DNA of 16,553 nt from assembly GCA_046758445.1 (NCBI GenBank), contig JBHIAE010000059.1, forward strand, positions 1 to 16,553, read 5' to 3'. Shown piece after piece: positions 1 through 3,637 of the stretch (the stretch's first letter is position 1; every line of letters begins with the position of its first letter). A program made the position numbers and the translations under genes. Source of the stretch: Candidatus Thorarchaeota archaeon. Its GTDB lineage: Archaea > Asgardarchaeota > Thorarchaeia > Thorarchaeales > Thorarchaeaceae. Under the pieces are notes generated by a model. The model was not told where the DNA came from and did not search any database. It was given only the letters and a program-made list of their open reading frames with translations.

Positions 1-102
1 ACAAACAGGTTAGACATGGCAGCCCAGGTATAGGTGCTACCAAGAGCAGTGCATATGTGCCCCTGAAATAGAAGAGAATTGCAGCCTCTGCCTTGTGAGA
101 GG

Positions 103-885
103 TTAGGTTCTCTTGATTCTCAATCCCAAAGTCACAAGTATGATGATGGTTGCCGCACTGCCACTCACTGCAATCAACGTGAAGGGAATCTGGCCAACTG
201 TAATTTCATCATCTACAATGACATTATCTATTGCCCACTCTTTGTTTAGTGACACAATGAAGTACTCACAGGATTCCACATCTACTGTAGTATCCGTTTC
301 TTGAATCACTTGTATGCCATCTATCCATACTGTGATCTGCCCTTCTGCTGTTCGCGTCATATCGATATGGTTGATTCCTTGTTTTCCCTCGTCGATGTCA
401 AATTATCCCAGAGTTGTGTAGTCTGCGCCTACACGTCCTTGTATGGTGGTACCTCGCAGGAGTCTCAATGCAGCGAATGTCGAATCTCCCAGTACCACCC
501 GTTGTAGCTCCAGACAGTATCCATTCCAGTATTCAGGGTCTGTACTCATGAAGAAGAACTTTGGAATGGCACTCAAGTCAAAGAAATCGAGGTCATACTC
601 TATGTCAAAGCTCCACGTTTCTGATGTTACCGAGCTCTCGTGATAGATAGTACCAAGGATCACGCACCCCTCACAGTCAACCGGACTGTCCCCCACAACC
701 TCCAGAGTATGATTGGCCGCCGACCACTCGCCATCAACTACTGTCCATCCATCATAGTTTCCATCTGAGAAGTCGTCAGACCATAGAACCACAGCATCAC
801 ATGAGTTGACTCGTACTGACACCAGAAAAACCAGCAATAGTGCAGCGACTAGAAATTGACGAACGAGGGAGCTAGCGCTTCGCAC
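103..885 (-). pseudogene. Membrane-anchored surface protein (LamG/concanavalin-like beta domain) with one in-frame TAA at 403-405; pseudogene or read-through gene, 260 codons
   Basis: ORFs 403..885 and 103..360 share a frame and are joined by 14 sense codons: ...DYTTLG*FDIDEGKQGINHID-MTRTAEG. The product has a signal peptide, WSDDFSDGNYDGWTV motif, beta-rich core, and C-terminal TM (TLIAVSGSAATIIILVTLGL) with basic tail RIKRT. GGAGG lies 8 nt before the GTG start. The fold call is inference. Confidence 0.8.
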
Positions 886-1136
886 ATGAGTGACCTCCTA
901 TCCTGGTCAGATTCAATGCGAATTACGGCTACAGGGCGGCCAAAGGAACCACCTAGTTTCTAACAGCCAGCCGAGATTGCTCGCTGTGGTTTTTAACTAG
1001 ATTTCGGAGCCAGCAAGAAACGTGCCCGTCGAGGTCGGAGGATTTGTTCATGTGCTGATGGTCGAAGAACGATTGAAGCAGAACTCTCTTATCTCAAGAG
1101 TGCATCTAGTGTGTGGATTTCATGGGGGACTGGACT

Positions 1137-1415
1137 ATGGAATACATAATGTTCTGGGAATATGACTCGGCAGATCACAATGTTGTGATGGAGAAGCCTA
1201 GGCAGTATCGGAATCAAGTGAAGAAGAATCCTGACAGTCATGCAAAGTTCATCTCCAAGAACTACACAATGGTAGATGGCCCTGAGGGTTTCCAGTTGGT
1301 TGAAACTGACAATCCTGAGCATCTTGTCAGCATTGTTCGCCACTACATGCCCGAGGTGCGCTTCAGATTCGCTCCAATTGTAGAATTGAAGAGAGTCGAC
1401 CAGAAGAAAGAATAG
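1137..1415 (+). CDS. DUF3303-like small alpha/beta protein
   Basis: MEYIMFWEY...GFQLVETDNPEHL...YMPEVRFRFAPIVE resembles the archaeal DUF3303 pattern. ATG at 1137 is preferred over GTG at 1113. Confidence 0.7.
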   Translation: MEYIMFWEYDSADHNVVMEKPRQYRNQVKKNPDSHAKFISKNYTMVDGPEGFQLVETDNPEHLVSIVRHYMPEVRFRFAPIVELKRVDQKKE

Positions 1416-1663
1416 TCAGTTTGAACCGCACCTTGTCGATGTAAGTACTGGAGTGCGAAACCGAGTGCATGTCCACTATGCCTATCGCAGAGCGTCCGTT
1501 CGATTCCTGAACTCGATAGCCATCCGAAGAGGTCCCAGACATAGTTCTCGCGTCCTTGGTTAGAAGGTACTTCGCGTGCGATTCAGTTTCAAACGCATTA
1601 TGCCATTCAAGACTTCATATTGTCAACAGTAATCTTGGACTCGTATTGTGGAGCAAAAGTATG

Positions 1664-1705
1664 GGGTGGAACTCAGACAGCCGGAAGCATGTCTGGATCC
1701 CACCC
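1664..1705 (-). terminator. Strong 3' stem-loop (terminator-like or 3'-UTR element) of the heme-protein gene
   Basis: Minus strand reads GGGTGGGAT-C-CAGACA-T-GC-TTCCG-GC-TGTCTG-A-GTTCCACCC, about 17 bp including G.U pairs. It starts 6 nt after the TGA and is followed by CATACTTTTG. Confidence 0.55.
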
Positions 1706-1711
1706 ATTGTT

Positions 1712-3157
1712 TCAGATGCGGCAAGCAGGGATAGACTGTGGTTTTCTTACAAATGCTGCTATCGCTGCGACTAGCGCGACTGCTGAAATGCCAACAGGTG
1801 CCCATATTATGAGGACCTCCGCAGCCTGTCCTGGTTGTCCTTCTGGCCCAGGGGGTCCAGTCGGTCCCTCTGGTCCCTCTGGTCCAACAAGAGACGGCTT
1901 ATCAGCGAAGGTCAGAGACAAGGGTGTTCCAATGTGGAATGAGTGGCCCTCACCGCCGGTGTCATCCATCAGCGCAATGTCGAACTCATAGGAGGCTGAA
2001 AGATCATCAAACTGCACATCGTCAGGATGTCCAGTTACAAGCTTGCGAGAGATTTCTATGGTCCATGTACCAGCAGCCCATGCGGCCCCTTCAAGGACAT
2101 CAGCACGACTTCCTTCGGGCAGCTGCAGAATTCTCTCAGGGATAGCAATCGGTGATGCACCCGCAGGCACGGAGAGAGCTGTGTACTTTGCCCAGTAGCT
2201 GCTAATGGTGGCATTGTTCAGCCCAGTTATGTCAACAGCTTCACCACTCTTCAACTCATTCGCTGTGATGAGCATTGCATCATAGTAGTCGAGCGGGTCT
2301 GTTTCCATGTAGATGGGTGCTGCCTTTGCTGCATATGATACTCCATCGATTACGGTGGTGCTGCCAATGCGATTGTGGTAGTATGAAGATCTACCGGCGT
2401 CTCCGTATCTTCCTCCATCCGGGTCATTTGCTATGGGAGCGCCCATGGCATCAAGAGCAACATAACCAATGTATTTGTCATCCATGTATCCAAGAAAACT
2501 GGCACCGGTTCCAATGTGGAAAAGTGGAAGACTCCTCGCAGCCTTCATGTGCCACATGTCCGCAAACATGCCCTGCGTGTCAAAATAGGCTCCATCTTCA
2601 GAGCTGCTAACGTCTGTGGTGTGACAGTCGGTGCACACTCCATGAGCATCATCTATACTGTGGGGAGGTGTCACTTGATAGCCCGTGGAGTTTATCGCAT
2701 GGCATTTACTCACACATCCATCAGTATCAAATCCGGGTGTGTTCATTGACCACATCACGGCGAGTCTATCTTCAGACTACTCCTCAGCCAGCACATCATT
2801 ACTCTTATTGAATCCACTTGTGGGGTCCCATTGCCATGACCCACCCCGAGTCCAGTTGAAAGTTGGATCGGGGTATTGCGCCAGCATATAGAGATCAGAC
2901 TCAGTGTAAAGGAATTTGATAGTCACGTTCTCGCCAGTGGTAGATTGACCACTGATGAAACAGCCGTCCACTGCCACAACTAACTCTGGTGCTGTGTCCC
3001 ACACCGTATCGACTACTCCGTCTAAAGCTGGAGCATCTCTGGTGTAAATCGCTTCCACGTCAGATGCAGCCTGAGTGCTTGCAGTAGCCACGGACACTGC
3101 CGCAGTTGCACCAACTAGAAGCAATGCGAATATAACTATTCCAATCTGTTTACGCAA
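1712..3157 (-). CDS. Ethylbenzene dehydrogenase gamma-like (EB_dh/DOMON-type) heme protein with c-type heme motifs, collagen-like stalk and C-terminal TM; one in-frame TAG at 2777-2779 (481 aa if read through, otherwise pseudogene)
   Basis: ORFs 2777..3157 and 1712..2758 are in frame: ...NDVLAEE*SEDRLAVMWSMN. Seen: signal peptide, APALDG..D..W..AP DOMON-like start, LYMLAQYPDPT, GCVSKCH, CTDCH, DMWHMKAARS, WTIEISRKLVTGHPDDVQF, seven Gly-X-Y triplets, TM helix and RK tail. GGAGTGA SD precedes the TTG start. Confidence 0.85.
1823..1885 (-). repeat. Collagen-like Gly-X-Y repeat (GPE GPE GPT GPP GPE GQP GQA)
   Basis: Seven consecutive Gly-X-Y triplets between the globular domain and the TM helix, with repeated GGACCAGAG units in the DNA. 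Confidence 0.9.
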
Positions 3158-3214
3158 TCTAGATCACTCCTAAGTAAGACTTGGTGAGCCGTCCCGCATT
3201 AGTCAGGTATATCA

Positions 3215-3342
3215 GTGTTACAAAAATCATTTGGGTTTTTTATATAAAACCAAGGTTATTATTATAAAAGATATGATTTAAATTTGCGATAATCAGCAGA
3301 TTTTTGTAAATTTCAGATTGTAAGTAATGTAATTGCAAAAGT
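3215..3342. promoter_or_regulatory. AT-rich promoter/operator region between the divergent heme-protein and DUF362 genes
   Basis: Very AT-rich relative to the flanks. TATA-like TTTATATA (3238-3245) lies inside the near-palindrome TTGGGTTTTTTATATAAAACCAA (3231-3253). Perfect 11-bp inverted repeat TTACAAAAATC (3218-3228) / GATTTTTGTAA (3299-3309). Confidence 0.7.
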
Positions 3343-3637
3343 TAGGACACGGAATATGTCGGCCAGATCCGGACGGGCCCTAGTTTCAAGATTCGCAAGC
3401 AATAGTGTTAGACAATGACAGAATGAAACTGACCGCTAGGAGCAGGGGTCGAACGTCTTCGCAGAGCCATCCAAGACAACTTCGCACTAAAGAGCTGATC
3501 TTGAGCCTTGGAGTCCAATCCGGCCCGCAACAGGCTTCGCCACGAGGCGCAGAATGACACTGATACAAGGTAGATCCTTTCTCATCTCAAAGTTGAAGAA
3601 GACTAGGGTTCAAAGCAAATCATCAGTTCACTAGACT

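Follow-up and report, generated by a model that had tools for sequence, protein, structure and literature searches.

In a deep-sea Thorarchaeial (Asgard) archaeon, two neighbouring genes for surface proteins are each interrupted by one in-frame stop codon, and the two stops are very probably independent, recent single-base nonsense mutations, each of which knocks out, or nearly knocks out, an accessory surface gene. In gene A, a glutamine codon, presumably CAG, would have become TAG within the EB_dh haem domain. This would split the product into a secreted N-terminal part of 126 residues, devoid of both haem motifs, and a downstream part devoid of the signal peptide. In gene B, a serine codon, TCA, would have become TAA, which would remove the last third of a predicted lectin-like domain together with the membrane anchor. 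Both stop alleles would be part of a wider set of such lesions dispersed over the genome, and they probably lie side by side because both genes are located in a dispensable island where selection against loss may be weak. That the genes have lost their function, that the ancestral codon of gene A was CAG and that weak selection is the cause are points that we infer. Judged from the sequences, the nonsense loss of the two genes looks like a known kind of event and not like a new reading of the code.

Results

Two interrupted genes for anchored surface proteins

The window, i.e. the whole stretch of 16,553 nucleotides that was analysed, contains the two genes and their in-frame stops at the following positions.

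103..885, minus strand: gene B, membrane-anchored protein, 260 codons, GTG start at 885; the frame reopens after the stop and runs to a TAA at 105-103
403..405, minus strand: in-frame TAA of gene B, next base T
1712..3157, minus strand: gene A, surface protein, 481 codons, TTG start at 3157; the frame reopens after the stop and runs to a TGA at 1714-1712
2777..2779, minus strand: in-frame TAG of gene A at residue 127, next base T

A preliminary description of this DNA had reported single in-frame UAR stops in two minus-strand genes, and this is confirmed: a TAG at 2779-2777 and a TAA at 405-403, each followed by a T. It had also attributed a signal peptide and a C-terminal transmembrane helix to both products, which inspection supports. 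The N-terminus of gene A is signal-like and hydrophobic, and its C-terminus comprises a hydrophobic helix with a basic tail; gene B exhibits a signal-like hydrophobic N-terminal stretch and a hydrophobic C-terminal helix with a basic tail. In the AF2 model of a gene B orthologue (pLDDT 68), residues 2-25 and 235-259 form helices.

Gene A: a dihaem EB_dh protein with a TAG inside its domain

Gene A matches the Pfam family EB_dh (PF09459) over residues 71-403 (E=1.7e-22, 81.1 bits versus a gathering cut-off of 33.3), so that the TAG at residue 127 lies inside the domain and not at a gene boundary. The protein comprises two CxxCH haem motifs, which are kept across all 11 aligned EB_dh members, a collagen-like GPEGPEGPTGPPGPEGQPG linker and a C-terminal transmembrane helix, and CcmF/CcmC-like cytochrome c assembly genes are encoded in the same genome. 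The linker contains a short repeat that varies in copy number:

1855..1872, minus strand: GPE-coding 9-nt repeat in the collagen-like linker of gene A; the contigs of all three metagenome runs lack 9 nt at 1863, i.e. one copy, relative to the window

One GPE of the linker is also absent from P0002.

Full-length, uninterrupted homologues of gene A include P0001 (74% identical, 479 aa) and P0003 (62%). In the protein-level alignment, the column of the TAG immediately precedes an invariant SEDR motif; it is occupied by glutamine in P0001, P0003 and P0013, the three closest homologues with the same architecture, and by N, P or A in remoter homologues. The gene has accumulated a single private substitution, and all family-invariant residues and both CxxCH motifs are intact. 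This means either that the TAG arose very recently or that selection still acts on gene A.

Gene B: a predicted lectin-like protein with a serine codon turned into TAA

Gene B belongs to a family that is expanded in Thorarchaeia and has no Pfam match. With the model of the orthologue, whose pLDDT is only 68, Foldseek retrieved CBM66, GH16 glucanases, galectins and calreticulin (E values between about 1e-6 and 1e-5, TM of at most 0.66 by target). At this model confidence, the predicted fold is a concanavalin-A-like beta-sandwich, which would make gene B lectin-like.

The alignments of gene B orthologues extend across the TAA, at which ten out of ten close orthologues have a serine (alignment A4); the three that were aligned as DNA, from G007, G008 and G004, have TCA. 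Uninterrupted orthologues with this serine are found in G007 (87% identical), G008, G012 and G004, as well as among database proteins (eight sequences). Since the orthologues have TCA, the coding strand has undergone a C>A transversion. The preliminary description had held that both stops are one C>T change away from a glutamine codon. This agrees with the homologues of gene A, at the protein level, but not with the serine of the gene B orthologues.

The branch leading to the window copy of gene B carries 18 non-synonymous and 18 synonymous substitutions, versus 6 and 15 on the one leading to G007, an excess that is not statistically significant. The ATG start was lost on the window branch. 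In addition, at columns that are otherwise invariant, the window copy has ten changes of its own, most of them radical, versus zero to seven in the other sequences (three in G007). In this comparison, the extra radical substitutions are consistent with decay, and gene B may be under relaxed constraint. Local hypermutation was considered and dropped, as the mutation spectrum of the gene B branch has no single dominant type.

In-frame stops across the genome and the case for leaky termination

A paralogue scan of the archaeon's own genome revealed at least 12 other cases of a lone in-frame stop, with all three types represented. The in-frame TGA, TAG and TAA codons align to W, R, Q, K, Y and S, and outside the two genes TGA is no rarer than TAG and TAA. 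The interrupted genes encode an AlkZ-like glycosylase, a condensation domain, a NAD-epimerase and an IS110 transposase, while a P-type ATPase gene and a TnpB-like gene are also split. Among 801 conserved ORFs, a comparison with the orthologues in G004 yielded 13 raw hits, about five of which are well supported, and in addition six frameshift-like breaks; the raw comparison was filtered because antisense "shadow" ORFs and upstream regions had swamped it. About 1% of the conserved genes have a single in-frame stop in an otherwise intact frame in G000 and G004 alike, the G000 hits at C4:37819-37909, C4:66749-66827, C12:57575-57677 and on C13 still being doubtful. A scan of coding potential on either side of stops yielded 264 candidates, mostly adjacent in-frame genes; it missed the TAG of gene A and was left out of the counts. 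All 12 single in-frame stops of G004 are UAR, and 7 of the 12 align to glutamate.

Local damage or decay came last among the explanations listed in the preliminary description, and it is the one that the evidence favours. The observations that the description itself had named as refuting its idea were also made: elsewhere in the genome there are internal stops of each of the three types, and sister genomes have sense codons. By simple arithmetic, if 20-50 of about 3,000 genes are interrupted, about 0.25-1.6 neighbouring interrupted pairs would arise by chance.

The stops could nevertheless terminate translation incompletely. In such "pseudo-pseudogenes", near-cognate tRNAs would read through weakly, and the genes would be turned down instead of dead. 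The perfect conservation of gene A downstream of its stop speaks for this reading, as does the fraction of about 1% of conserved genes with single stops in G000 and G004. Two published surveys, which we count on the same side, argue that prokaryotic in-frame stops are widespread and often under purifying selection, and that weak expression of disrupted genes can occur (PMC7918605, PMC9122581). Leaky termination is nevertheless unlikely, given that UAGU and UAAU commonly serve as genuine terminators in this genome (224 and 80 times, respectively), that folding over the 126 nt from either stop is no stronger than in shuffled sequences, i.e. no stimulatory RNA fold was detected there (z = -0.81 and -0.67), and that the radical substitutions of gene B fit decay. 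A broader version, in which this Thorarchaeial genus tolerates single in-frame stops unusually well and leaky aRF1-based termination keeps gene A, and perhaps gene B, partly functional, appears quite doubtful.

A strain-variable island and the case for adaptive loss

The two genes flank an intact gene and lie within segments that differ between strains:

92..1072, no strand: segment spanning the whole of gene B plus the region upstream of it; skipped by lower-depth contigs that join 91 to 1073
1113..1415, plus strand: intact DUF3303 gene between genes A and B (PF11746, E=4e-9), also present in G007
1504..3581, no strand: cassette with gene A; the sister species G007 has a 1,016-bp O-methyltransferase segment instead, with flanks that are 88-91% identical

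The contigs that skip 92..1072 come from runs X2 (5x) and X3 (9x) and share about 91% identity with the window over their aligned parts; there appears to be a co-occurring strain without gene B. As an O-methyltransferase occupies the slot of gene A in G007 and diverged contigs skip gene B, both genes are dispensable and lie within a strain-variable island.

This location is also what could be expected if the loss of the surface proteins was adaptive, for instance as an escape from a virus that uses them as receptors, or if the stops represent the off state of a population-level switch that back-mutation could revert. Two surface proteins are affected within one variable island, gene B is skipped by diverged contigs of the same runs, and G007 has a different gene in the slot of gene A. 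However, no repeat, inverted repeat, invertible element or simple-sequence tract was found near positions 404 or 2778, nor any homopolymer longer than 3. Only the stop alleles occur among the contigs listed, and no intact allele was seen, in a check that covers assembled contigs of three vent runs from one study; such contigs drop rare variants, and minority alleles may hide. Moreover, cytoplasmic enzymes and transposases are interrupted elsewhere in the genome, which argues against any specificity for the surface, and the chance expectation given above already accommodates one neighbouring pair. Adaptive loss therefore seems very unlikely.

Translation machinery and the case for recoding

No tRNA with a stop anticodon was found by ARAGORN with and without introns, by an Infernal scan with RF00005 or by an anticodon search anchored on the T arm, in a tRNA set that is incomplete (33 Infernal hits plus ARAGORN extras, from a 92.7%-complete MAG with many tRNA introns). 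ARAGORN did propose a "tRNA-Stop(tta)" at C40:12865-12972. This candidate most likely represents a tRNA-Asp(GUC) interrupted by a non-canonical intron: in the Rfam alignment and by manual parsing, an anticodon arm CAAGA-CUGUCAC-UCUUG (Asp, GUC) is located 4 nt before the T arm, and about 30 nt are inserted after the D arm. The genome has no match to the PylS model TIGR02367, for which only one of the control genomes scored above the cut-off. The aRF1 exhibits the standard NIKS, YxCxxxF and GGQ motifs.

The long ORFs of the genome terminate with TAG (45%), TGA (41%) and TAA (12%). Within the window, a recount roughly matched the earlier tally of genuine ends (TAG 9, TGA 6, TAA 2). TAG is the commonest terminator, and the earlier judgement that a global reassignment is unlikely is upheld. 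Neither of the two stops is conserved in any relative compared.

Programmed recoding, in which a glutamine-inserting suppressor tRNA with a UUA anticodon, pyrrolysine or RNA editing would give sense to UAR, could account for two features, namely that each stop is a UAR codon with a U after it and that the homologues of gene A have glutamine at the site. It is highly improbable, as the gene B orthologues have serine instead of glutamine, the search for stop-anticodon tRNAs, in the incomplete tRNA set, and for PylS was negative, the aRF1 motifs are standard, TAG is the preferred terminator, the stops are unconserved in relatives, and in-frame TGA is elsewhere no rarer than TAG or TAA. The readings put forward in the preliminary description, i.e. 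read-through or glutamine suppression, a surface switch and U-to-C editing, thus find no support: the genome has no detected suppressor tRNA or PylS, its aRF1 is standard and the contexts of the stops are ordinary. The lack of a hypermutable tract, the orthologues without stops and the ancestral serine of gene B also disfavour them.

Presence of the stops in separately assembled contigs

A contig of 12,709 bp from run X1 spans positions 1-3300 of the window, with three base changes and one 9-nt deletion, none of them at either stop. Both stops are unchanged in contigs from X2, and the TAA is unchanged in a contig from X3; the stop-carrying contigs of these vent metagenome runs (X1-X3) have depths of 11-27x. 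Although the genome is a MAG of 113 contigs with an estimated contamination of 3.95%, a sequencing or assembly error can practically be set aside, since the stops recur unchanged in contigs of separate runs, which differ from the window elsewhere (A>G at position 202, a 9-nt indel) and are thus not simple copies of one assembly.

Discussion

The two interrupted genes resemble ordinary prokaryotic nonsense pseudogenes or null alleles in several respects: a one-base change from sense to stop in a conserved domain, intact orthologues, strain-variable dispensable genes, and stops of all types and frameshifts scattered over the genome. They differ from typical cases in that gene A exhibits no secondary decay yet and in that the two lesions lie within 2.4 kb. 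Bacterial "pseudo-pseudogenes" are similar in that the stops interrupt well-preserved genes and low read-through is conceivable (Belinky et al. 2021, PMC7918605; Feng et al. 2022, PMC9122581). Those cases were supported by dN/dS over many genomes or by proteomics, whereas the present one was read from sequence, in an archaeon with a single aRF1.

Archaeal stop recoding, with pyrrolysine at UAG or selenocysteine at UGA, shares with our case an in-frame stop in a functional-looking archaeal gene. Such recoding depends on dedicated machinery (for instance pylTSBCD or SECIS/SelB), and orthologues share the recoded sites. In contrast, the sites described here are lineage-specific, PylS was not found in the genome, and one of the stops is UAA. 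A likeness can also be drawn to phase-variable contingency loci, in which surface-protein genes are turned off by a frame-disrupting change. Bacterial contingency loci rely on hypermutable repeats or invertible DNA, and their on and off forms coexist. The two stops, in contrast, are plain point mutations with no repeat, and the stop allele is the only one among the contigs listed.

Our preferred reading, i.e. two independent nonsense mutations, carries a caution for the annotation of Asgard MAGs: single in-frame stops can be genuine fixed mutations without any variant code, and gene callers will split the genes that they interrupt in two. The two genes mark a small strain-variable island that encodes a dihaem EB_dh surface protein and a predicted lectin-like anchored protein, and the gain and loss of these surface proteins may reflect pressure on the cell surface. 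Leaky termination, if true, would bear on the fidelity of eukaryote-like termination in Asgard archaea.

Interrupted genes and their reality

The window corresponds to contig C59 in its full length, part of a metagenome-assembled genome of 3.25 Mb (G000; 113 contigs, 92.7% complete). The preliminary description had placed one in-frame UAR stop in each of two surface-protein genes, and both stops are present:

3157 to 1712, minus strand: gene A, surface protein with an EB_dh domain; single in-frame TAG at 2779-2777, followed by T
between genes A and B, plus strand: DUF3303 gene, intact
885 to 103, minus strand: gene B, membrane-anchored, putatively lectin-like protein; single in-frame TAA at 405-403, followed by T

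The EB_dh match of gene A (PF09459, residues 71-403) spans the TAG at residue 127, and the protein comprises two CxxCH motifs, a collagen-like GPE/GPT linker, and a hydrophobic helix at the C-terminus. Gene B has no match in a Pfam search. Paralogues of gene B are numerous within the genus, and its relatives are encoded in genomes of Thorarchaeota and other Asgard archaea. The AlphaFold model of the intact orthologue from the sister species G007 (pLDDT 68) exhibits a beta-sandwich flanked by an N-terminal and a C-terminal helix, and at this confidence resembles CBM66, GH16 glucanases, galectins, and calreticulin.

Both stops are real at the level of the assembled contigs. The window DNA is present in three sequencing runs (X1, X2, and X3) of a single hydrothermal-vent metagenome study. 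An X1 contig of 12,709 bp spans positions 1-3300 with three substitutions (202, 620, and 656), none touching either stop, and one 9-nt deletion within the GPE repeat. Contigs of X2 cover both stops unchanged, and an X3 contig covers the TAA among the matches listed; the contig depths over the stops are 11-27x. Contigs can mask rare variants. All three runs differ from the window both at position 202 and in the 9-nt repeat, and so do not simply reproduce its assembly. The database protein P0002 (341 aa), called from the X1-length contig, begins at a Met downstream of the TAG, which fits the same interruption of gene A. Positions 1-55 are identical to the reverse complement of positions 1-55 of contig C78 of the same genome, which is probably an assembler k-mer overlap between abutting contigs.

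Probable ancestral codons

Gene B is uninterrupted in four genomes of the same genus (87% identity in G007; 63-64% in G008, G012, and G004), and likewise in eight database proteins. The column of the TAA is Ser in every close orthologue and reads TCA in the DNA of G007, G008, and G004, so that the mutation is C>A on the coding strand and not the C>T change from CAA that had been proposed. With regard to gene A, no close orthologue was found among the 40 relatives searched. The residue corresponding to its TAG, which directly precedes an invariant SEDR, is Gln in the closest database proteins, P0001 (74%), P0003 (62%), and P0013, and N, P or A in remoter members; a CAG>TAG transition would be the simplest inference from this alignment. 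Neither stop is conserved in any relative compared.

Variable island and selection

Both genes lie in a variable island. The flanks of this region in G007 are 88-91% identical to the window, and in place of positions 1504-3581, including gene A, there is a 1,016-bp stretch that encodes an O-methyltransferase. In X2 and X3, lower-depth contigs that are about 91% identical where aligned join position 91 to position 1073, omitting gene B and its upstream region. This is only suggestive of a strain-level absence of gene B, as joints matched at <95% likeness may derive from other organisms. Beyond gene B, G007 exhibits a gene matching Pfam Ribosomal_S19 and a TPR gene.

Constraint on gene B looks relaxed in the window lineage. 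Polarised against outgroups, non-synonymous and synonymous changes number 18 each on the window branch, versus 6 and 15 on that of G007, small counts whose contrast is not significant alone. The start codon changed from ATG to GTG on the window branch, and at columns otherwise invariant in close orthologues the window copy carries 10 private substitutions, most of them radical (G>D, P>L, G>E, Q>L, A>E); other gene B sequences have 0-7 private changes, mostly conservative. In gene A every invariant residue is retained and only a single private change is seen; either its TAG arose very recently or some selection still acts on the gene.

Variant contigs of X2 and X3, 90-94% identical and at a third to half of the depth, cover parts of gene A (2405-2465, 2542-2742, 2834-3044, and 3077-3256). 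In the piece 2834-3044, 13 of the 14 listed differences (16 in total) fall at third codon positions, a bias which indicates that these samples also contain a diverged variant of gene A that is subject to purifying selection.

In-frame stops elsewhere

A tblastn search of the genome with its own coding-like ORFs revealed at least 12 further single in-frame stops, of all three types, inside strong paralogue alignments; five are TGG (Trp) positions changed to TGA or TAG. In a reciprocal orthologue comparison with 1.6 Mb of the same-genus genome G004, 801 conserved ORFs gave 13 raw in-frame-stop matches in G000, about five of them well supported, as well as six frameshift-like breaks.

Well-supported in-frame stops of G000, with the residue in G004
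C12:27209, TAG, W
C15:22584, TGA, W
C25:16487, TAG, K
C93:3499, TGA, R
C41:17037, TAG, Q

Based on Pfam searches of the read-through products, stops lie within an AlkZ-like DNA glycosylase, a condensation domain, an NAD-dependent epimerase, and an IS110 transposase; others divide a P-type ATPase and a TnpB-like gene. Interruption is thus not restricted to surface proteins. G:C>A:T predominates among the changes, as expected under spontaneous mutation. With 20-50 interrupted genes among roughly 3,000, chance alone would yield about 0.25-1.6 pairs no more than two genes apart (our own arithmetic), and one neighbouring pair is unremarkable.

A gene B paralogue of G000 at C4:48808-49361 matches as two pieces in differing frames (residues 23-97 and 107-212), which may reflect a frameshift or a small insert. 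Conserved genes at C1:102913-103221, C1:123194-123209, C30:29274, and C40:13547-13554 match G004 proteins as two adjacent pieces in different frames, which may reflect frameshifts, errors of assembly or short introns. The DUF3303 stretch at 1147-1358 has a paralogous stretch, 67% identical, at C1:104753-104964, whose divergent neighbour, an Fe-S protein gene (C1:103448-104560), has an in-frame TGA at 104350; that this layout mirrors DUF3303 and gene B is probably a coincidence.

In the first 1.6 Mb of G004, a scaffold record containing 100-N gaps, all 12 well-supported in-frame stops in conserved genes are TAG (7) or TAA (5), with no TGA (for example C1:146738, 197331, 274330, 572440, and 897547). 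Seven of the stops correspond to Glu codons in G000, suggestive of G>T changes, and the flanks match very closely, at up to 18/20. Only two frameshift-like breaks are present, and genuine terminators are normal (TGA 355, TAG 352, TAA 101). A mutation or error spectrum of the oxidative-damage type could account for these stops, as could something of greater interest.

Read-through and recoding

Low-level near-cognate read-through of both stops is the one rival explanation with a probability above a few percent, and is itself unlikely. Such read-through of in-frame stops is argued for bacteria in PMC7918605 and PMC9122581. Both stop contexts are ordinary here: UAGU (n=224) and UAAU (n=80) are genuine terminators, also in neighbouring genes of the window, and among long coding ORFs TAG is the commonest terminator (45%), followed by TGA (41%) and TAA (12%).

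Dedicated recoding machinery was not found, although with an incomplete tRNA inventory it is not proven absent. ARAGORN counted 16 tRNAs without introns and 36 with introns, and Infernal gave 33 matches, the additional ones read as His(GUG), Lys(CUU), Glu(CUC), Val(GAC), and Arg(UCG). A search anchored on the T-arm motif in this incomplete inventory gave no intact stem-loop with a UUA, CUA or UCA anticodon. PylS was not found by a search that scored 1 of 14 control genomes over the cut-off. The aRF1 gene, suggested for inspection, has the standard NIKS, YxCxxxF, and GGQ motifs. Many tRNA genes are intron-bearing, and several (His, Glu, Val) were recovered by Infernal only. The tRNA-Stop(tta) called by ARAGORN is most likely an artefact: the T arm at this locus is preceded, 4 nt away, by a canonical Asp anticodon arm (loop CUGUCAC). 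The gene, at C40:12865-12972, reads best as tRNA-Asp(GUC) with about 30 nt inserted behind the D arm, which is not a canonical place for an intron.

The surface switch or read-through put forward in the preliminary description is not supported, given the lack of detected machinery, the ordinary contexts, and the lack of conservation; moreover, the 126 nt beginning at either stop show no better folding than shuffled sequence, and neither stop has a repeat, inverted or otherwise, nearby.

Probable loss of function

The evidence best supports two loss-of-function point mutations that arose independently, one in gene A and one in gene B, and such events are of a known kind. Decay, which the preliminary description kept as a fallback, is the reading supported by contig-level stops, sense-codon orthologues, and similar lesions genome-wide. 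Ending at residue 126, gene A would yield a fragment that bears the signal peptide and lacks both haem motifs, and a restart at the GTG/ATG codons 7-8 positions past the stop would give a product without a signal peptide. Ending at residue 160, gene B would lose the last beta-sandwich strands and the membrane anchor. In the AlkZ-like glycosylase gene (C12:26691-27983), an in-frame TAG stands at the position of a Trp codon (TGG) in G004. That this broken DNA-repair gene coincides with a visible load of point-mutation pseudogenes in the same genome may be of interest.
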